A stretch of 64,000 bases of DNA, from the NCBI RefSeq assembly GCF_009931435.1, contig NZ_CP043414.1. One strand, written 5' to 3'. Shown piece by piece: positions 2,376 to 40,517 of this stretch. A model generated the notes under the pieces. The model saw nothing but the letters and a program-made list of their open reading frames with translations. It had not been told where the DNA came from and ran no database searches. Made by a program: the position numbers and the translations under genes. Origin of the DNA: Escherichia coli. Its GTDB lineage: Bacteria; Pseudomonadota; Gammaproteobacteria; Enterobacterales; Enterobacteriaceae. Positions within the stretch are counted from its first letter, which is position 1; the number at the start of each line of letters is the position of its first letter.

Positions 2376-3124
2376 TGGCGGAACTCAGCGATCAGGAGAT
2401 GCTGCGCTACAACCGGCAAATCATTCTGCGCGGTTTTGATTTTGACGGTCAGGAGGCGCTAAAAGATTCTCGTGTGCTGATCGTCGGCCTCGGTGGACTC
2501 GGCTGTGCAGCTTCGCAGTATCTGGCAAGCTCCGGTGTCGGCAACCTGACGCTGCTCGACTTCGACACGGTTTCGCTCTCGAATCTGCAACGCCAGACTC
2601 TGCACAGTGATGCCACGGTCGGGCAACCGAAGGTGGAATCCGCCCGAGACGCACTGGCGCGGATCAATCCACATATCGCGATTACGCCGGTAAATGCGTT
2701 GCTTGATGACGTGGAGCTTGCTGCATTGATCGCTGAACACAATCTGGTGCTCGACTGCACGGATAACGTTGCGGTACGTAATCAATTGAACGCTGGCTGT
2801 TTTGCCGCAAAGGTGCCGCTGGTTTCCGGGGCGGCAATTCGTATGGAAGGACAAATCACGGTCTTCACTTATCAGGACGGCGAACCGTGCTACCGCTGCC
2901 TTAGCCGTTTGTTTGGCGAGAACGCGCTAACCTGCGTAGAAGCAGGCGTGATGGCACCGTTGATCGGCGTAATTGGTTCGTTGCAGGCAATGGAGGCGAT
3001 CAAACTGCTGGCAGGTTATGGCAAACCGGCCAGCGGGAAAATCGTCATGTACGATGCGATGACCTGCCAGTTTCGCGAAATGAAACTGATGCGTAACCCG
3101 GGGTGTGAGGTGTGCGGGCAGTAA
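2375..3124 (+). CDS. moeB: Molybdopterin-synthase adenylyltransferase MoeB (ThiF/E1-like)
   Basis: 249 aa, GLGGLG nucleotide-binding motif and C-terminal CxxC pairs; start overlaps moeA stop. Confidence 0.9.
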   Translation: MAELSDQEMLRYNRQIILRGFDFDGQEALKDSRVLIVGLGGLGCAASQYLASSGVGNLTLLDFDTVSLSNLQRQTLHSDATVGQPKVESARDALARINPHIAITPVNALLDDVELAALIAEHNLVLDCTDNVAVRNQLNAGCFAAKVPLVSGAAIRMEGQITVFTYQDGEPCYRCLSRLFGENALTCVEAGVMAPLIGVIGSLQAMEAIKLLAGYGKPASGKIVMYDAMTCQFREMKLMRNPGCEVCGQ

Positions 3125-10048: not shown

Positions 10049-11641
10049 TTACTCGATCCCTTTACTACGCAGGTAATCTTCGTAATTACCGCTAAAGTCG
10101 ATCACGCGTTCCGGGGTGATTTCCAGAATGCGGGTCGCCAGGGAGCTTACAAACTCACGGTCGTGAGAAACAAAGATCAGCGTTCCCTGATACAGTTCCA
10201 GCGCCATGTTCAGCGACTCGATAGATTCCATATCCAGGTGGTTGGTCGGTTCGTCCATGATTAGAATATTTGGTTTCTGCATCATTAACTTACCAAACAG
10301 CATCCGCCCTTTTTCCCCACCGGAAAGCACATTAGCTGGTTTTTTGATGTCGTCCTGGCTGAACAGCAAACGACCGAGAATGCTGCGTACCGCCTGCTCG
10401 TCATCGCCTTCCTGCTTCCACTGACTCATCCATTCGAATACGGTCAGATCATTTTCGAACTCATATTCGTGGTCCTGGGCGTAGTAACCAATGCGCGCGT
10501 TTTCAGACCATTTTACGGTGCCGCTGTCCGGTTGCAGATCGCCCACCAGCGTTTTCAGCAGCGTTGATTTACCGACGCCGTTGGTACCCAGTACCGCCAG
10601 TTTTTCACCCACTTCCAGCAGCAGGTTGAGATTTTTAAACAGGGGACCGTTATCAAACCCTTTGGTCAGACCTTCCACTTCCAGCGCGTTACGGAACAGT
10701 TTCTTATCCTGTTCAAAACGGATGAACGGGTTCTGACGGCTGGAGGCTTTCACCTCTTCAAGTTTGATTTTATCAATCTGGCGTGCGCGCGAAGTTGCCT
10801 GGCGAGATTTCGAGGCGTTGGCACTAAAGCGGCTAACGAAAGATTGCAACTCAGCAATCTGCGCTTTCTTCTTGGCGTTATCAGCCAGCAGACGTTCACG
10901 CGCCTGAGTCGCCGCCGTCATGTACTCATCGTAGTTGCCCGGATAAACGCGCAGTTCACCGTAATCCAGATCCGCCATGTGGGTACAAACCATGTTAAGG
11001 AAGTGACGGTCGTGCGAGATGATGATCATGGTGCTGTCACGCTCGTTCAGCACCTGTTCCAGCCAACGAATGGTGTCGATGTCGAGGTTGTTGGTCGGTT
11101 CGTCGAGCAGGAGAATGTCCGGATCAGCAAACAGCGCCTGCGCCAGCAGCACACGCAGCTTCCAGCCAGGAGCAACTTCACTCATCGGGCCGTAGTGCTG
11201 TTCCACTGGAATTCCCACGCCAAGCAACAGTTCACCGGCGCGAGCTTCCGCAGAGTAACCGTCCATTTCGCCGTATTTCACTTCCAGATCGGCCACTTTA
11301 TAGCCGTCTTCTTCACTCATTTCCGGCAAAGCATAGATGCGGTCGCGCTCCTGCTTCACTTCCCACAACTCTTTATGCCCCATGATCACCGTATCCAGCA
11401 CGGTGAACTCTTCAAAGGCAAACTGATCCTGACGCAATTTACCAATGCGCTCGTTGGGATCGAGGGAAACGTTACCCAGCGTCGGCTCTAAGTCGCCGCC
11501 GAGGATCTTCATAAAGGTGGATTTACCACTACCGTTCGCGCCAATCAGGCCGTAACGGTTGCCGCCGCCAAACTTGACGGAAATGTTTTCAAACAACGGC
11601 TTACTGCCGAACTGCATGGTGACGTTACTGGAAACTAACAC
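10049..11641 (-). CDS. ybiT: ABC-F family ATPase YbiT (tandem ABC domains)
   Basis: 530 aa, two Walker A motifs ([18 protein letters not shown]); GTG start. Confidence 0.9.
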
Positions 11642-11859: not shown

Positions 11860-12780
11860 ATGAATATGAAATTGAAAACATTATTCGCAGCGGCCTTCGC
11901 TGTTGTCGGCTTTTGCAGTACCGCCTCTGCGGTAACTTATCCTCTGCCAACCGACGGGAGTCGCGTGGTTGGTCAGAATCAGGTGATCACCATTCCTGAA
12001 GGTAACACTCAGCCGCTGGAGTATTTTGCCGCCGAGTACCAGATGGGTCTTTCCAACATGATGGAAGCTAACCCGGGTGTGGATACCTTCCTGCCGAAAG
12101 GCGGTACTGTACTGAACATTCCGCAGCAGCTGATCCTGCCGGATACCGTTCATGAAGGCATTGTCATTAACAGCGCAGAGATGCGTCTCTATTACTATCC
12201 GAAAGGCAGCAACACCGTTATCGTGCTGCCCATCGGCATTGGTCAGTTAGGCAAAGACACGCCTATCAACTGGACCACCAAAGTTGAGCGTAAGAAAGCA
12301 GGCCCGACCTGGACGCCGACCGCAAAAATGCACGCAGAGTACCGCGCTGCGGGCGAACCGCTTCCGGCTGTCGTTCCGGCAGGTCCGGATAACCCGATGG
12401 GGCTGTATGCACTCTACATCGGTCGCCTGTACGCTATCCATGGCACCAACGCCAACTTCGGTATCGGTCTGCGTGTAAGTCATGGCTGTGTGCGTCTGCG
12501 TAACGAAGACATCAAATTCCTGTTCGAGAAAGTACCGGTCGGTACTCGCGTACAGTTTATTGATGAGCCGGTAAAAGCGACCACCGAGCCTGACGGCAGC
12601 CGTTATATTGAAGTCCATAACCCGCTGTCTACCACCGAAGCCCAGTTTGAAGGTCAGGAAATTGTGCCAATTACCCTGACCAAGAGCGTGCAGACAGTAA
12701 CTGGTCAGCCTGATGTTGACCAGGTTGTTCTGGATGAAGCGATCAAAAATCGTTCCGGGATGCCGGTTCGTCTGAATTAA
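11860..12780 (+). CDS. ldtB: L,D-transpeptidase LdtB (YbiS)
   Basis: 306 aa with signal peptide and catalytic SHGC motif ([10 protein letters not shown]). Confidence 0.85.
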
Positions 12781-12837: not shown

Positions 12838-13956
12838 CTACCAGGCCGGGAGCATAACGAATAAAACGTATCCCACCAGCGCCGCCCACAACAGCATCGG
12901 TATCGAATAAAGATGAAAACGCCACCAGATACGGCGATCGTTCGCCATCCGTAATGCAATCAAATTTGCCAGCGATCCGGGTAATAAACCAAAGCCACCG
13001 ACGTTTACCGCCCATGCCAGTAATAAAGACGGTGGCACATAATTGAGGAGCAAAATCGTGCTCGGCACATTACTGATCACCTGCGATAAACCAATTGCCG
13101 TTAACCATAATCCGGGTTCGGATAAATGGCTCACATTGCTCAACACGCCCTGCAAAGCTGGCAGTTGGGTCAGCAAATGGACGTCGATAAACATCGCCAT
13201 AAATACCAGCAGCAGCGTCCAGTCCACGCTGATCACCACGCGACGAGCCAGCAGCGCAAAGCCCGCCGCTACAATCACCAGTCCCCACAGCTCTTGTTTT
13301 AACTCCAGCGCCGTCAGAAAGACGATATACAGCCCCAGACAACTCCACACCAGCCGCGGTTTCCACTCAGGTGTTTGCGCCCCCGTATGATATTGCAGCG
13401 CCTTTCCAGGGAAACAACACCAGCACAGTAGCAGGAGTGTCAGCATCATTGCGCCAGCCAGCGGTGCCATTTGGGCAATAAACCCGGCAAACGAAAGACC
13501 AGAACGACCCCAGATAAGAATATTTTGCGGGTTGCCAATCGGCGTCAGTAGCGAACCCGCATTGACTGCCAGCGCCTCAAAAATAATCAGTCGATTAACC
13601 GGGATCTCACACAGTCTTTTTAGCGTGATGGTCAGCGGAACAACTATAAACAGCGCGACATCGTTGGTCAGAAAGGTAGAAAGTAGCGCCGCCGCCAGCA
13701 CCATAAACATCGCCAGCCGTCGCTCCGTAGCAAAGCGGCGCACCATTTTGCGCCCCAGCACATCAAAATAACCGCTTAACTCCACACCTTTGGTCAGCAG
13801 CATCAGACCGCTTAAGGTGATGATGGTGTGCCAGTCGATAGCAGCAGGCCAGGATTTCGGTGCAAAGGGAACAAAAAAACTTAATCCGATGCCAACAAGA
13901 ATTAATAACTGAAAAAAACGATCGCCTTGCAGCGTGCGTAAAAAAGGCAGGCTCAT
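12838..13956 (-). CDS. ybiR: Inner-membrane transporter YbiR (ArsB/NhaD-like permease)
   Basis: 372 aa, highly hydrophobic multi-TM protein; syntenic. Confidence 0.8.
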
Positions 13957-17020: not shown

Positions 17021-18724
17021 TCAGGCGATGATTTTCTGGTACTTACTTCGGGTCTGTCCTGCTTTCTCTGCTGTCTGGGTAAATGCTCCGGCATTGGTTG
17101 GCGTACCAACACTGGGGTGCGAATGACTCGCACATTGCTGCGCCAGCTCTGCCAGTAAATCAATGGTGTCCAACATCATGGTCAGCGTGTTTACACTCTC
17201 ACTGCCGATATGGATGGTTGGCCCCATAATCTGCTGACCGCCCGATGCTACCGATTTGCGTAATGCAGTAATCTTTTCAGTCAGGCTTTCGCCAACCTCC
17301 ACGGCTACAGCACCGCCCACTTTAATGGACTGCTGTCCTGCTATGTCCGTTTCTTCGTTTCCTTCAATGCTGGCCAGCCTGTTACCTTTCACGGCCTGGC
17401 TAAAATCCCCGGCACTGACCTGCTGAATGGCTCCGGCTAGCAGGGTGGCGGTCCCCACCACAATGGTTTTATCCGTGGCTTTAACCGTGGTTTCGCGACT
17501 GACCAGATCACGTTGTTCTGTATCTGCTTTTACCGTTCGCACCATCGATGTTTCACTGATGGTCTGATCGGTCTGCCTTACCCAGTCACCCGCCAGAGTC
17601 ACCCTCTGGGATACTTCTTCCCGCTGCTGCTGCAATTGCTCACCGGGTTTAACGTCCGGCAGACTGGTGCCATCCGGTAGCGTCTGCCTGATAAAAGGTT
17701 TATCCGGTCTGCCTCCTGTGAATGCGACCTCAACCAGCGTCCCTTCTGGCGGGAACTGAAACATACCTGAATCATTCCCGGCCATTGGTACCGGCAGCGG
17801 CACCGCTGAATAAACAGGCGTCTGATTGTCCGGATTTCCGTCTGCGTCAAGCAGCTGCACGTCCACGGCGTAACGTGGCCGGAAGGGATCGGCAAAGTTA
17901 CCGCTTTTTACCGGCTCTGAATGCGCCACGACTCTGGCCATCTTTGGCAAATGAAGCCCGGATGCCAGTTCCGGGTAATGGCTTTCAATCTGCCGTTGCG
18001 CTGGTGTTTTCTGCAAAGGTTTACCCGTTGCGCGGTTTCTCGGCGTCCATGTGATCGCCATCGTGTCATTAGTCAGGTGAACTTTAGTCACGCGTTCACC
18101 GTTCATCTCCACCCCTGGCCGCATAGTCTGGATCACTGGTAATGTCACAGAGTTACCGCCAGCAGCCCCCTGGCTGAACTCTGACGGGATTTCTACTGGA
18201 CGACCGGCAAACAATGACTTTTCTGCGCCGCCGACGTAAAGCGAACCATCAGGTAACTGGTACCAGATGTAATCCTGGATACTGAACGCCCTGCCCAGAT
18301 TGTTCAGCAACTGATAACCAGTACCGTTATGGGTAAAATGTGGGATGGGGGTATCGCTGTACTGTGCATCAGGCACACTGACCGTGATCCCGCTGTTTTC
18401 TTCCAGCCAGCCCGCAATTTCACGCAAAGTCGGGTGTTGAAACGAACATGGCCACATCCTTTCAAACACACCTACCAGCTCACGAATGAATAGGCGCTGA
18501 AAACCGTTTTCAGCGGGCTGCGATCGCTCCACATACCCCGTAAACCAGCGCAAAAGCAGATCGGTATACCCCACATCCAGCCGCACCAGTTTTCCGGTGT
18601 AATCGGTTGTTGTCTCTGCGGTGATGAAGCCCCGGCCGCAGCTGTTCAGCTCCAGTACCAGGCTGACATCCACCAGGTGAACTTCATCCGTTGAAAGGTA
18701 AAGACGTTTTACTGGTTTCATCAT
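17021..18724 (-). CDS. Phage tail/baseplate protein, probable hub-spike (gpD/VgrG-like), 567 aa
   Basis: Size, position at end of tail module, Gly/Thr/Val-rich beta-strand-like C-terminal half; family assignment by recall only. Confidence 0.45.
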   Translation of the reverse strand: MMKPVKRLYLSTDEVHLVDVSLVLELNSCGRGFITAETTTDYTGKLVRLDVGYTDLLLRWFTGYVERSQPAENGFQRLFIRELVGVFERMWPCSFQHPTLREIAGWLEENSGITVSVPDAQYSDTPIPHFTHNGTGYQLLNNLGRAFSIQDYIWYQLPDGSLYVGGAEKSLFAGRPVEIPSEFSQGAAGGNSVTLPVIQTMRPGVEMNGERVTKVHLTNDTMAITWTPRNRATGKPLQKTPAQRQIESHYPELASGLHLPKMARVVAHSEPVKSGNFADPFRPRYAVDVQLLDADGNPDNQTPVYSAVPLPVPMAGNDSGMFQFPPEGTLVEVAFTGGRPDKPFIRQTLPDGTSLPDVKPGEQLQQQREEVSQRVTLAGDWVRQTDQTISETSMVRTVKADTEQRDLVSRETTVKATDKTIVVGTATLLAGAIQQVSAGDFSQAVKGNRLASIEGNEETDIAGQQSIKVGGAVAVEVGESLTEKITALRKSVASGGQQIMGPTIHIGSESVNTLTMMLDTIDLLAELAQQCASHSHPSVGTPTNAGAFTQTAEKAGQTRSKYQKIIA

Positions 18725-33015: not shown

Positions 33016-33819
33016 TTACAGGAAATTAAATTTCCCGGCTTTATCTTTGATACTGCGCCCCGGTGTGCGGGTGGATTTATTACCCAAATCGTTAAAGCGT
33101 TTAACGATATCTTTCGCATTATCACGAATAGCCGCAAATTCTTCCGTGTCCACTACCTCAGCAATAGTGTCAACATCGCCCTGGACATCGTTCATCTGGC
33201 TTTCAATTTTTGCCACACGACCTTCCAGTTCATTCACTGCATTGGCCAGCGCCTGCAACTTATCATCACCCTGCCCGGAATCATCCGACTGCGATTCGTC
33301 TTCAAATTTCGGCTTAATGCCAAATAATTTCTGCCAATTCTTCATTCTGTTTTCCTGTTGAATTTTGCCATCACGGGAAATTACACAGCTGTAATACCCC
33401 TGCTTTGATAATTTTTTGCGCCGACTACTAAAGCGCAGCCGTGTGGTGCCAATACTGGCTGGCGTATCCGTTACCGCCAGCCCCTTCAGATAAGTACGCC
33501 CGCTACCGCGCCAGTTCTCCTCCGGCTCAATGGAGAAGAACAGAAGCTGGTCTTCATGGTTTGCGAAAATCAAACGCATATTTGGGCAGAGGCTGACGTA
33601 AAGTCGCGCCAGTCCGTCTTCACCATCTTTCCAGGTGGCCTCCAGTACCTCCCCGAAATTACCGCAATCGTCCTCATGTTCCGGCCAGATTAAGGCAACG
33701 AAGTGGCTATAGTCATAGGTTTCCCCCATATCAATAATCCACTGCCGTTTAATCTCTCTGCCGTCAACGGTATCCCCTTCGGTAGCCACACACAGCCAGT
33801 CAGTTTTTAAATGTGACAT
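33016..33819 (-). CDS. Capsid scaffolding protein, gpO-like
   Basis: 267 aa, YLKGLAVTDTPASIGT segment similar to P2 gpO; divergent from terminase large subunit gene. Confidence 0.7.
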   Translation of the reverse strand: MSHLKTDWLCVATEGDTVDGREIKRQWIIDMGETYDYSHFVALIWPEHEDDCGNFGEVLEATWKDGEDGLARLYVSLCPNMRLIFANHEDQLLFFSIEPEENWRGSGRTYLKGLAVTDTPASIGTTRLRFSSRRKKLSKQGYYSCVISRDGKIQQENRMKNWQKLFGIKPKFEDESQSDDSGQGDDKLQALANAVNELEGRVAKIESQMNDVQGDVDTIAEVVDTEEFAAIRDNAKDIVKRFNDLGNKSTRTPGRSIKDKAGKFNFL

Positions 33820-33901
33820 ATCCCCCCTGCTTCACTCCCTGACGCTGCAAATCAATTATTGCCAAATATAACCGCCACCGCATTACGCTTTATTCTTTTC
33901 A

Positions 33902-33926
33902 GTTCGGTTATAACGCTTTGCCGAAC
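33902..33926. promoter_or_regulatory. Dyad-symmetry element GTTCGG-N13-CCGAAC in divergent late promoter region
   Basis: Perfect 6-bp inverted repeat about 55-80 bp upstream of terminase ATG; candidate activator-binding site. Confidence 0.3.
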
Positions 33927-33980
33927 AGACGCGAATTAACACCACCGTTTTTTCATTACAGCCACGGCATAATTATCCGC

Positions 33981-35756
33981 ATGGCTAAATACTCCGAAGA
34001 ACTAAAAGGCGTTGTTCGCGCACTTTATTTGCGCCGCTATACGCCAAAAGAAATTGCATCAGAATTAAATCTGCCGAATGCGCGGATCGTTTACTACTGG
34101 GCGGAAAAATACAGCTGGGCAGATTTACTCAGTTTTGAAAGCACAGAAGAAGCGATCGAACGCCGTTACCAGCTGCTGGCCAGTCGCGATAACAAAACCG
34201 ATCTCGACCTGAAAGAAATGGACATGCTTATTGCACACGCCACGAAGCTGCGTGCTCAAAGCAATAAGCATAAAGAGAAGATGGCCAGCGGACAGGGAAG
34301 CGGGCAAGCAGCTGCGCGGGACAACAATGACGATGAATCCCGCAGCAAACGCAAATACAAGAAAAACGATATCTCATCGCTGACCCAGGAAGATTTTGAC
34401 GCTTGGGCAGAAGAGCATCTTTTTGAATACCAGAAACACCTGCGCCTGAACATTGGCCAACTGGTGCGAAACATCCTCAAAAGCCGCCAGATTGGTGCCA
34501 CTTGGTATTTTGCGTATGAAGCGTTTGAAAACGCCGTAATAACCGGCGATCCGCAAATCTTCCTGTCCGCCTCCAAAGCTCAGGCAGAAGTATTCCGTTC
34601 GTATATCGTCAACATTGCCGAGCAGTATTTCGGCATCACGCTGACCGGCAACCCGATCCGTTTAAGCAACGGCGCAGAGCTGCGTTTTCTCTCCACCAAT
34701 AAAAATACAGCGCAGTCCTACAGCGGCCACCTGTACTGCGACGAATATTTCTGGGTGCCGAACTTCACCCGGCTTAACGAAGTAGCCAGTGCGATGGCCA
34801 CGCACGACAAGTGGCGCACCACCTACTTTTCAACGCCGTCAGCCAAAACACACCAGGCGTACCCGTTCTGGACAGGTGAGGAATGGACACAGGGCAGTAA
34901 AAAACGAGCGGCAGTTAAATTCCCGTCCTTTGACGAAATGCGCGATGGCGGACGTCTTTGCCCGGATGGTCAGTGGCGCTACGTCATTACGATGGAAGAT
35001 GCCATTGCGGGCGGCTTTAACCTGGCCAACATCGAGAAACTGCGCAACCGCTACAACACGGCCACTTTTAACATGCTCTATATGTGCGTGTTCGTGGACA
35101 GCAAAGACTCCGTTTTCAGTTTCGCGGATCTGGAAGCCTGCGGCGTGGAGGTGGACACCTGGCAGGATCATAACCCGGATGCCCTGCGCCCCTTCGGAGA
35201 CAGACCCGTCTGGGGCGGTTTTGACCCGGCACGCAGCGGCGATTTGTCGTGTTTCGTCATTGTCGCCCCGCCGATGTTTGCCGTGGAGAAATTCCGCGTT
35301 CTGAAAGTGATTTACTGGAAGGGAATGAACTTCAGATACCAGGCAAAACAGATCGAACAGCTGTTTAAAAAATACAACTTCACGTATCTGGGCGTTGACG
35401 TTACCGGCATTGGCCAGGGTGTTTTTGACAATATCCAGCATTTCGCCATGCGTGTGGCCGTCGCCATTCGTTACGACATGAACACCCAAAACCAGCTGGT
35501 ACTGAAGGCGGCAGACGTGGTGGAAAGCCAGCGCATTGAATGGGACAAAAACCTGAAAGAGATCCCGGCCAGTTTTATGTCCGTGCGCCGAACCACCACA
35601 CAGAGCGGCAACGCCATGACGTTTGTCGCAGACCGCAGCCAGGACACTGGTCACGCAGAGGCATTCTGGGCAATCACCCACGCCCTGCATAACGAGCCTC
35701 TGAACTACGAAAACAAACCGAAATCCCGCTGGGGTGTGAGGAACAAAGCAGCATGA
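33981..35756 (+). CDS. Terminase large (ATPase) subunit, gpP-like
   Basis: Track ORF starts at TTG 33918; ATG at 33981 gives ~591 aa, the size of P2 gpP; divergent from O-N-M-L. Confidence 0.75.
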   Translation: MAKYSEELKGVVRALYLRRYTPKEIASELNLPNARIVYYWAEKYSWADLLSFESTEEAIERRYQLLASRDNKTDLDLKEMDMLIAHATKLRAQSNKHKEKMASGQGSGQAAARDNNDDESRSKRKYKKNDISSLTQEDFDAWAEEHLFEYQKHLRLNIGQLVRNILKSRQIGATWYFAYEAFENAVITGDPQIFLSASKAQAEVFRSYIVNIAEQYFGITLTGNPIRLSNGAELRFLSTNKNTAQSYSGHLYCDEYFWVPNFTRLNEVASAMATHDKWRTTYFSTPSAKTHQAYPFWTGEEWTQGSKKRAAVKFPSFDEMRDGGRLCPDGQWRYVITMEDAIAGGFNLANIEKLRNRYNTATFNMLYMCVFVDSKDSVFSFADLEACGVEVDTWQDHNPDALRPFGDRPVWGGFDPARSGDLSCFVIVAPPMFAVEKFRVLKVIYWKGMNFRYQAKQIEQLFKKYNFTYLGVDVTGIGQGVFDNIQHFAMRVAVAIRYDMNTQNQLVLKAADVVESQRIEWDKNLKEIPASFMSVRRTTTQSGNAMTFVADRSQDTGHAEAFWAITHALHNEPLNYENKPKSRWGVRNKAA

Positions 35757-36814
35757 GCAAAAAGAAACGCTTCGTTAAGCGCGACCCGCGCGGCGATAAA
35801 TCAAAAAAGATGAGCATTATCACGTTCGACAAACCGGAACCAGTGCTGACCACCGGCACGGATTACCGTGATATCTGGTATGACAACGCCGCAGATCACT
35901 ACACCCAGCCGATTGACCGGCTGGCGCTGGCGCAACTTATCAACCTTAACGGCCAGCATGGTGGCATCATCCACGCCCGAAAAAATATGATTGTGTCCGA
36001 TTACCTAGGGGGCGGTCTGACGTATGACCAGCTTGAAGCCGCAGCGTTTGACTATACGACCTTCGGAGATATCGCGATTGGCAAAATCCGCAATGGCTGG
36101 GGAGACGTGATCGGGCTGGAGCCTTTACCCGGTCTGTATATCCGCCGCCGTAAACTCAGGGATAACGCAGAAAATGTACCCGGTGATTATGTGGTTCTAC
36201 AGGAAGGAGAGCCGCAAATCTGGCCGCAGGAAGACATTATTTTTATCAAAATGTATGACCCCCAGCAGCACATCTACGGGCTGCCGGATTATATCGGAGG
36301 GGTGCATTCGGCCTTACTGAACAGTGAGGCGGTCATTTTCCGCCGTCGCTACTACCATAACGGCGCCCATACGGGTGGCATCCTGTACACGCGTGACCCC
36401 AGCATGACGGATGAAATGGAAGAAGAGATTGAACAGCAGCTGCGTGACAGCAAAGGGATCGGCAACTTCTCCACCATTCTGGTGAACATTCCAGGCGGGG
36501 ACGGTGACGCCATCAAATTCATTGAAATGGGGGATATCTCTGCAAAAGATGAATTTGCCAACATCAAAAATATCAGTGCGCAGGACATTCTCAACGCTCA
36601 CCGCTTTCCCGCAGGGCTGGCCGGAATTGTCCCGCAGAATACTGCCGGGCTGGGTGATGTTGAAAAGGCTGAAAGGATTTACAAGAAAAGCGAGATAGCG
36701 CCCATTCAGCGCCGGTTTATGACCGCTGTTAACAACGATCCCGAAATACCTGAACGGCTGCATCTTAACTTCGATTTAAGTTACACAGAATCAACGGATA
36801 AGGATGCGGCATGA
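35753..36814 (+). CDS. Portal protein, gpQ-like
   Basis: 353 aa, start overlaps terminase stop; P2-type P-Q arrangement. Confidence 0.75.
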   Translation: MSKKKRFVKRDPRGDKSKKMSIITFDKPEPVLTTGTDYRDIWYDNAADHYTQPIDRLALAQLINLNGQHGGIIHARKNMIVSDYLGGGLTYDQLEAAAFDYTTFGDIAIGKIRNGWGDVIGLEPLPGLYIRRRKLRDNAENVPGDYVVLQEGEPQIWPQEDIIFIKMYDPQQHIYGLPDYIGGVHSALLNSEAVIFRRRYYHNGAHTGGILYTRDPSMTDEMEEEIEQQLRDSKGIGNFSTILVNIPGGDGDAIKFIEMGDISAKDEFANIKNISAQDILNAHRFPAGLAGIVPQNTAGLGDVEKAERIYKKSEIAPIQRRFMTAVNNDPEIPERLHLNFDLSYTESTDKDAA

Positions 36815-36864
36815 GGCGAAAAAGGCTAAAATCCAGGCATCATTTAACAGCTGGAGCATGGAAT

Positions 36865-37134
36865 ATGCGAGTTCTGAAAATCGAATGCCCGGAATGCGGC
36901 TCAAAGGCTGTTATTCGTAAAACAAACCGGAAGCACCGGCAGATTGCGGATATTTACTGCGCATGTTCAGATGTGGAGTGTGGCCATACTTTTGTTATGA
37001 ACCTGACGTTCTCCCACACTCTCAGCCCCAGCGCTAAAACGGGTGATGCGATGGTGCAAAAAATACTGAATGCACTTTCACCCGATCAGCGCCAGATGGC
37101 ATTAGACCTACTGAAAGCGCCCCCCGCCGCCTGA
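36865..37134 (+). CDS. Ogr/Delta-family zinc-finger late-gene transcription activator (C-terminally extended)
   Basis: From ATG 36865: MRVLKIECPECG...YCACSDVECGHTF matches C-x2-C...C-x4-C-x2-TF spacing of Ogr/Delta/186 B. Confidence 0.6.
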   Translation: MRVLKIECPECGSKAVIRKTNRKHRQIADIYCACSDVECGHTFVMNLTFSHTLSPSAKTGDAMVQKILNALSPDQRQMALDLLKAPPAA

Positions 37135-37137
37135 AAT

Positions 37138-37170
37138 GCCCCCATTCTGGGGGCGTTGCCCTTCCTTTTT
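37138..37170 (+). terminator. Rho-independent terminator after ogr-like gene
   Basis: Hairpin gcccccattctgggggc followed by gttgcccttccttttt. Confidence 0.6.
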
Positions 37171-37433
37171 AACCATTTCGCGAACCTCTCCCGCAAGCTC
37201 TCCAATCCAGGCCAAAGCGATTGTTTTCTCTCTCTGGTTACTTTCGTAAACATGGGCAATTTTGGCCAATAACTCAATGCGTTCCAGCTGTGCCGACGCC
37301 TCCAAAAGATCCATTTAGCCCCCACAAGCAATAAATAACTGGATATACATACAGTATACCTTAAAGCACGAATTGTGAAATTTAATTTCCTGTCATCTAC
37401 TGACAAATGAATGCCTTTCACATACTTACACCG

Positions 37434-39651: not shown

Positions 39652-40517
39652 GCCACCACCGCCCGAACATCGATCGCAGGGTTAGCAGGTGACTTAAGAA
39701 TCAGCTCAGCGGCCATTTTCTGGCTTGCAGCTGCTGCACCCACACTACGTGGCGCATTTACCCGAACAGCGTCGAATCCTGCATACAGGTAATGCACCAT
39801 TTCCAGATCGCTATTTGACGCGACAACCTTAATCCCACGCTCAGTCAGGCGGCGCAGCTTACGCGCCAGCCGTCCCTGATCCATGTGCGAAAAACCGCGC
39901 TCATGGTAAGCGGTGAAATTATCGCTATCAGTCAGGTAAGGCGGATCACAATAAACAACGTCATGCCCGTCCCTTACCAAATCAAGCGTTTCTGAATAGT
40001 GGGCAGTAATGAACGTTGCACGTTTCGCTTTTTCAGCAAAAGCGCGGATTTCATCAGCAGGAAAGTAGGTTTTTTTGTACTTACCAAAAGGAACATTGAA
40101 CTGGCCACGGCGATTGTATCGGCACAGGCCATTGAAGCAGTGACGGTTCAGATAAAGAAAACGCGCCGCAGCTTCCACAGATTCAGAACCAAAGGATTTG
40201 CCTGATTGGTTGAAGGCATCACGCACCGCGTAATAGAAAACAGCGCGGCTTTCTTCATTGCCTAATGAACCGGCAGAAAATAAAGCCTCCAGCTCAATGA
40301 GCAATGCATCAGTCTGATAGGCCATTGTCTTATACAGATTAACCAGGTCGGGATTCACATCAGCGATCAGGTACTCGCCATAATCCGTATTCATCATGAC
40401 AGCACATGAACCGGCAAAAGGTTCTATCAGGCGCTTGCCCTCCGGCAGATGGGGAAGCAACTGCGGCATAAGGCGGGCTTTACTGCCCACCCACTTAAGC
40501 GGAGTTTTTACTGCCAT
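39648..40517 (-). CDS. DNA adenine methyltransferase (Dam-like N6-adenine MTase), prophage-encoded
   Basis: 289 aa with N-terminal FAGS (EPFAGSCAV) SAM motif and DPPY catalytic motif (VVYCDPPYL). Confidence 0.8.
   Translation of the reverse strand: MAVKTPLKWVGSKARLMPQLLPHLPEGKRLIEPFAGSCAVMMNTDYGEYLIADVNPDLVNLYKTMAYQTDALLIELEALFSAGSLGNEESRAVFYYAVRDAFNQSGKSFGSESVEAAARFLYLNRHCFNGLCRYNRRGQFNVPFGKYKKTYFPADEIRAFAEKAKRATFITAHYSETLDLVRDGHDVVYCDPPYLTDSDNFTAYHERGFSHMDQGRLARKLRRLTERGIKVVASNSDLEMVHYLYAGFDAVRVNAPRSVGAAAASQKMAAELILKSPANPAIDVRAVVA

Follow-up and report, generated by a model that had tools for sequence, protein, structure and literature searches.

The window, a 64,000-nucleotide stretch of Escherichia coli DNA, carries a prophage of the Peduoviridae (ESSI-2/Quadragintavirus type) that is 88% identical to Escherichia phage ESSI2_ev129 (ev129) over 2 kb. 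Within this prophage, a non-coding gap of 161 bp (33820-33980) separates two divergent genes, a gpO-type scaffold gene, which starts at 33819 on the minus strand, and a gpP-type terminase gene, the ATG of which lies at 33981 on the plus strand. A search of 5,426 complete E. coli genomes yielded the gap in 10, with 100% identity in strain MFDS1016424 (NZ_CP106924.1), and this prophage type is rare in E. coli. The features of the region are as follows.

33016-33819, minus strand: capsid scaffolding gene (gpO family), from the open reading frame list, Pfam PF05929 (Phage_GPO, E 2e-36) and the annotation of ev129
33855-33860, minus strand: AATAAT, predicted -10 element of the leftward late promoter (scaffold to baseplate), from conservation and mirror symmetry
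33893-33935, no strand: composite element of four phased half-sites, exactly symmetric about 33914
33893-33897, 33903-33907, 33921-33925 and 33931-33935: half-sites TTCTT, TTCGG, CCGAA and GCGAA of the composite element, respectively
33968-33973, plus strand: CATAAT, predicted -10 element of the rightward late promoter (terminase, portal and ogr), from conservation and spacing
33981-35756, plus strand: gene for the terminase large subunit (gpP type), first of the rightward operon, from Pfam Terminase_6N, Terminase_6C and Terminase_5
35753-36814, plus strand: gene for the portal protein, from Pfam PF04860
36865-37134, plus strand: Ogr/Delta-family zinc-finger gene (89 aa), last of the rightward operon, candidate activator
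37149-37173, plus strand: terminator-like hairpin with a T-run, directly after the ogr-like gene

The open reading frame map and the annotations of relatives fit a late region of the HP1/K139 type, in which two late operons diverge and the ogr homologue lies downstream of the portal gene. The rightward operon consists of terminase, portal and, in the last position, the Ogr/Delta gene, followed by the terminator-like hairpin; a terminator is annotated in the equivalent position in K139. The leftward operon starts with the scaffold gene and runs for roughly 17 kb to a baseplate gene at about 17021. The non-coding gaps between 17021 and 33819 measure at most about 190 bp, the largest being the tail-chaperone frameshift region. 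The gene order is shared with K139 and the HP1-like phages; in K139, only two late promoters (P16 and P17) are annotated, and one 17-kb operon extends from the scaffold gene to orf39. A 32-aa histidine-rich open reading frame (31119-31217, minus strand) was also observed between the small terminase and head-completion genes. It starts 6 nt past the terminase stop codon, it matches nothing except, marginally, a PHROG of unknown function, and a longer open reading frame is annotated at this place in ev129.

The dyad GTTCGG-N13-CCGAAC, reported in the earlier note at 33902-33926, was confirmed there letter for letter and is the sole exact copy in the 64-kb window (expected number, 0.01). It is centred at 33914, and its arms can be lengthened to TCaGTTCGG and CCGAACaGA, with pairing at eight of nine positions. 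Because a perfect 6-bp inverted repeat with a spacer of 3-20 bp occurred in 33% of the dinucleotide shuffles of the 161-bp region, the dyad on its own is not significant and lies within chance; its significance comes from the comparison with other phages. A perfect 6-bp inverted repeat at most 3 bp from the symmetry centre of the region occurred in 1.9% of the shuffles. The gap also holds a second inverted repeat, a perfect one of 8 bp (TATAACCG / CGGTTATA at 33867-33874 / 33905-33912) with 30 bp between its arms, which overlaps the left arm of the dyad. It was rejected as a functional site, as its left copy is not conserved in most relatives and it looks accidental. A search of the region against Rfam returned no RNA family, but only a single chance match below threshold.

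Further copies were sought at other gene starts, since the earlier note had proposed a search for the dyad upstream of the other late operon starts. No other gene start in the window carries the full dyad with up to three mismatches, the left arm plus spacer, or tandem CCGAA, and no second TTCGG-N12-15-CCGAA site with at most one mismatch was found at any gene start. A match at 39760 was discarded for want of a -10 hexamer at the right distance. Internal late promoters at 31072-31223 and 26216-26403 were likewise discarded, these intervals holding the small open reading frame and the tail-chaperone frameshift region, respectively, and no motif. Recurrence within the prophage is not an applicable test, because this phage type has only two divergent late operons and there are no other late starts.

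Conservation was analyzed with 80 relatives from IMG/VR, the terminases of which are 86-99% identical to that of the window and which gave 62 distinct upstream sequences. On the left side, the conserved islands are ATTATTGC (33855-33862), ATTCT (33892-33896), and TTCGG plus TA (33903-33910); on the right side, they are CGAA (33922-33925), CGAA (33932-33935), a T-run (33946-33953), and GGCATAATTA (33965-33976). The islands around the leftward and rightward -10-like hexamers are invariant in all 62 sequences, and little or no variation is seen in TTCGG and in the right-arm GAA, while the 5-bp spacers between the repeats and most of the central spacer are variable. Since the spacers vary and the short repeats are kept, the conserved unit, as judged from the alignment, is a set of four short phased repeats, with two direct repeats for each promoter, and not a 6-N13-6 palindrome. 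The composite has the layout TTCnn-N5-TTCGG-N13/14-CCGAA-N5-nnGAA and a length of 43 bp, and its outer repeats are weak in the window itself (TTCTT and GCGAA). The whole gap is two-fold symmetric about 33914, both ATAAT boxes included. The dyad is indeed conserved, but it forms only the inner pair of the four half-sites.

The promoter geometry was determined from 22 half-promoters of 11 lineages, numbered outward from the inner repeat as anchor. CCGAA occupies positions 0-4 in 21-22 of the 22 half-promoters, and GAA occupies positions 12-14 in 20-22 of them, which places the second repeat exactly 10 bp outward; TAT tends to stand before the inner repeat. A -10-like hexamer (CATAAT, AATAAT, TATGAT, TATGGT, TATTGT, or AATACT) begins 47-48 bp beyond the inner CCGAA (46 bp in one case) in 20 of the 22. 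On the terminase side this distance, 47-48 bp (46 bp in ev239), was found in all 11 lineages and in HP1, where the arrangement is CCGAA-gatat-CCAAA-N32-CACAAT and the distance is also 47 bp. On the scaffold side, AATAAT of the window mirrors the plus-strand hexamer about 33914 and lies 47 bp from the inner CCGAA, as does the hexamer in 9 of the 11 left half-promoters. The inner half-sites are 18-19 bp apart from centre to centre, which is not a whole number of helical turns.

A sigma-70 scan of the gap detected neither a -35/-10 pair nor a -35 match, and the absence of a -35 match is as expected of an activator-dependent promoter. If the hexamers are -10 elements, transcription is predicted to start at about 33848 (leftward) and about 33980-33981 (rightward), and the direct repeats would lie near -57 and -47 of each promoter, with the dyad centre near -66. 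Counted from these predicted starts, the promoter-proximal repeat pair covers about -59 to -45. CATAAT ends 7 nt upstream of the terminase ATG, so that the predicted start roughly coincides with the ATG. A -10-like hexamer 6-7 nt before the terminase ATG, without a Shine-Dalgarno sequence, was also observed in the E. coli, Yersinia, Salmonella, and Vibrio lineages (33968-33983 in the window); this proximity and the lack of a Shine-Dalgarno sequence suggest that the mRNA of the terminase large subunit may be leaderless in those lineages. A terminase leader is present in ev239 and in the Pasteurellaceae phages HP1 and F108, with an evident ribosome-binding site in ev239 and F108.

Next, the motif was compared across phage lineages. 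The scaffold/terminase gap holds a perfect TTCGG-N13/14-CCGAA in the window and in 10 further phage lineages, which come from E. coli, Cronobacter, Yersinia, Vibrio, and Aeromonas; the compared regions share descent, so the lineages are not fully independent observations. When complete genomes were scanned with the pattern TTCGG-N12-15-CCGAA, exactly one perfect match was found in each of ev129, ev239, YenM_324, K139, and phiO18P, and in every case it was located in the scaffold/terminase gap. ESSI-2 has a perfect TTCGG-N13/14-CCGAA in the corresponding gap, and so do four more Vibrio phages (ValB1MD-2, a V. cyclitrophicus prophage, PV94, and yong1), in each of which it is the sole perfect match in the 12-kb stretch scanned. 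By our own arithmetic, a region of about 170 bp would hold a perfect match by chance with a probability of roughly 3e-4. The DNA flanking the motif does not align when the enterobacterial, Vibrio, and Aeromonas groups are compared. K139, PV94, and YenM_324 differ from the window in their 14-bp spacer, which is 13 bp long in the window, and in having near-perfect TTCGG/CCGAA at most or all of the four repeats, the outer ones being weak in the window. Otherwise, K139 and the HP1-like phages share with the window the four-repeat element and the spacing between it and the -10-like boxes. The late promoters of K139 are annotated in its record solely as predicted sigma-70 promoters, with no activator site marked.

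No strict match to TTCGG-N12-15-CCGAA was detected in the whole genomes of P2, HP1, and F108, or in 12-kb stretches surrounding the ogr homologue in one Burkholderia and one Pseudomonas phage, the former stretch lying outside the terminase gap. In Salmonella phage SI7, the inner right repeat has been lost and the geometry of both promoters is kept. Repeats of the TATCCG/GGATAT type in 10-bp phase were observed in distant relatives, namely HP1 (13608-13825), F108 of Pasteurella (12196-12399), and PfPro of Pseudomonas (2933-3093); F108 has three direct copies of them, and in HP1 and PfPro they make up a large palindrome.

The candidate activator encoded at 36865-37134 matched Pfam Ogr_Delta (PF04606) with 70.8 bits (cut-off, 26.3; E 9e-20) and belongs to PHROG 603, a transcriptional regulator. 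In an alignment with P2 Ogr and six relatives, the cysteines C8, C11, C34, and C39 are invariant and form C-X2-C-X22-C-X4-C, the motif quoted for the Ogr family, members of which are established activators of late transcription in P2, 186, and P4 (PMC3931495). The protein is only about 21-28% identical to P2 Ogr, has an extra conserved C-terminal tail relative to it, and belongs to the HP1/K139 subfamily; no solved relative was found in the PDB. GGAG stands 8 nt ahead of its ATG. An alternative ATG lies 18 codons upstream (36811-36867), overlapping the portal stop codon (ATGA), and is the annotated start in Yersinia phage YenM_324. Of the two, the start at 36865, which gives the shorter protein, is preceded by the better ribosome-binding site.

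The identity of the Ogr homologues to the window protein is 94% for ESSI-2, 79% for ev239, 68% for YenM_324, 59% for SI7, 53-57% for K139, and 46% for phiO18P. The relatives retrieved with an Ogr alignment were all at least 84% identical, and the wider diversity was sampled from named phage records. All carriers of the motif encode one Ogr subfamily, 46-99% identical to the window protein; P2 has no motif, and the motif is altered where Ogr identity falls below about 40%. Across the sampled records, the half-site seems to shift from CCGAA toward TATCC with growing divergence of the Ogr protein. SI7, together with F108 and the Pseudomonas phage, the TATCCG repeats of which are related but differently arranged, shows that the correspondence between motif and Ogr subfamily is not absolute. 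The proposal of the earlier note that a divergent Ogr-like protein goes with a different recognition sequence thus agrees with the low identity to P2 Ogr and with an element that tracks the Ogr subfamily across genera; the dyad, though, is not the whole of the conserved unit.

The P2 record annotates a single activator site (3057-3087) common to pO and pP; its centre is 55-56 bp away from both mapped starts, and its distance to the O start codon is 95 bp. The two separate boxes that the earlier note implied therefore do not correspond to the P2 arrangement, which leads one to expect a single central element in the window. This is what was found, as one symmetric element lies halfway between the two -10-like boxes that mirror each other. 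Its centre at 33914 is 95 bp from the scaffold start codon, the same distance as in P2. Similarly, one palindromic site was assigned to both promoters in the analysis of phage Smp131 (PMC3931495).

In agreement with the earlier note, no TGT-N12-ACA is present in the gap; its plus strand lacks any TGT, and the best relaxed match is TAT-N13-ACA. This absence is weak evidence, however, as P2's own sites also fail the literal pattern. In the P2 genome, a literal TGT-N12-ACA occurs five times, always outside the three annotated activator sites (3057-3087, 10239-10266, and 17555-17583); the textbook consensus is for this reason too loose as a test of presence or absence.

The element resembles the Ogr/B/Delta box of P2, 186, and P4 in its location upstream of late promoters without a -35 hexamer match and in the presence of an Ogr/Delta zinc-finger gene at the end of a late operon of the same phage, and it resembles P2 in being a central element common to the divergent terminase (pP) and scaffold (pO) promoters. 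In contrast, its sequence is unrelated to the P2 box (quoted consensus TGT-N12-ACA, centred near -55), being of the CCGAA type without TGT/ACA, and in place of one 18-bp inverted repeat it comprises four half-sites, which on each promoter side are arranged as direct repeats in 10-bp phase. The predicted symmetry centre is at about -66, as against -55 in P2, whereas the direct repeats near -57 and -47 would lie in the same zone as the P2 Ogr box. Activators of the OmpR/PhoB type bind head-to-tail direct-repeat sites in 10-bp phase just upstream of promoters without a -35 match. The element in the window is reminiscent of such sites, although the folds are unrelated (zinc ribbon versus winged helix).

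Taken together, the composite probably serves as an upstream activating element shared by the two back-to-back late promoters, with the phage's own Ogr-like protein as its most likely ligand. Several observations weigh against this reading, namely the centre-to-centre distance of the inner half-sites, the weak outer repeats of the window, the arrangements in SI7, F108, and the Pseudomonas phage, the shared descent of the compared regions, and, should the inner dyad be the functional unit, its centre near -66. A simpler version, in which the 25-bp inner dyad alone is one palindromic site, occupied by a single dimer of the Ogr-like protein and serving both promoters as in P2, with the outer GAA/TTC being incidental, appears unlikely. 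P2 does have one shared site for pO and pP, and the inner arms are the best conserved repeats, at a spacing of 13-14 bp that is fixed across genera. However, incidental outer repeats would hardly be kept at exactly 10 bp in 20-22 of the 22 half-promoters while the 5 bp between varies freely, SI7 retains the geometry of both promoters without the inner right arm, and a centre at about -66 would lie a full helical turn beyond that of P2. There is a still smaller chance that the site is regulatory but bound by another protein, either a gamma-proteobacterial host factor or the phage Cox, CII, or repressor. The motif is conserved across hosts that have many global regulators in common, but it occurs once per phage genome and only at late promoters; it follows the Ogr subfamily, a family with an established role in late activation, and is absent from P2 and altered where the Ogr protein is more distant. 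Consensus sequences of CRP, IHF, Fis, and sigma-54 were not recognised in the element by eye, and readings of it as a sigma-54, CRP, IHF, or cos site were dropped on the same inspection.

That the repeat is a chance palindrome, or a packaging (cos) or structural DNA signal instead of a transcription signal, is very improbable. The frequency of 6-bp inverted repeats among the shuffles would allow for it, as would the perfect 8-bp repeat in the same gap, which most relatives do not conserve. Against this stands the maintenance of the motif in 11 lineages amid unalignable DNA and at a fixed distance from the -10-like boxes; moreover, the cos ends of phiO18P, HP1, and P2 are located elsewhere in their genomes.

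With the composite as a shared activating element, each promoter would combine a conserved -10-like hexamer with two direct repeats of the CCGAA type at a distance of 10 bp and would lack a -35 match, and the palindrome would arise because the two promoters mirror each other about 33914. P2 Ogr recruits RNA polymerase at late promoters. By analogy, we infer that the Ogr-like protein, once bound to the CCGAA-type repeats, would contact and recruit RNA polymerase at both promoters, which would switch on the terminase-portal-ogr operon rightward and the scaffold-to-baseplate operon leftward. Late activation would then be self-reinforcing through positive feedback, since ogr stands at the end of the rightward operon; similarly, in P2, ogr is read through from pF. 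The fixed inner spacing of 13-14 bp argues for some coupling between the repeats of the two promoters, and the SI7 arrangement argues that a tandem pair may be able to act alone. More tentatively, the Ogr proteins of the HP1/K139 type may read direct CCGAA repeats in 10-bp phase, unlike P2 Ogr with its inverted TGT/ACA box, and the four repeats may assemble one complex that fires two promoters at once, one of them giving a leaderless terminase mRNA.

In summary, the element is of the expected kind and leaves the general picture of P2-type late control unchanged, but its sequence and the arrangement of its repeats differ from the P2 paradigm. Within the searchable full-text literature, no CCGAA/TTCGG site is described for these phages; the primary papers on K139, HP1, and P4 delta fall outside that scope and may hold a prior description. 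Among bacterial viruses, the Ogr family provides the classic zinc-finger activators, and to our knowledge it is only in the P2/186/P4 branch that the way in which they recognise DNA has been worked out. For the large HP1/K139/ESSI-2 branch, a clear and testable consensus would make late promoters annotatable in many prophages of Enterobacterales, Vibrio, Aeromonas, and Haemophilus, and it would help to predict cross-activation among satellites and helper phages. The activator and its site also offer a natural variant pair for studying how DNA is read by a small zinc-finger fold.
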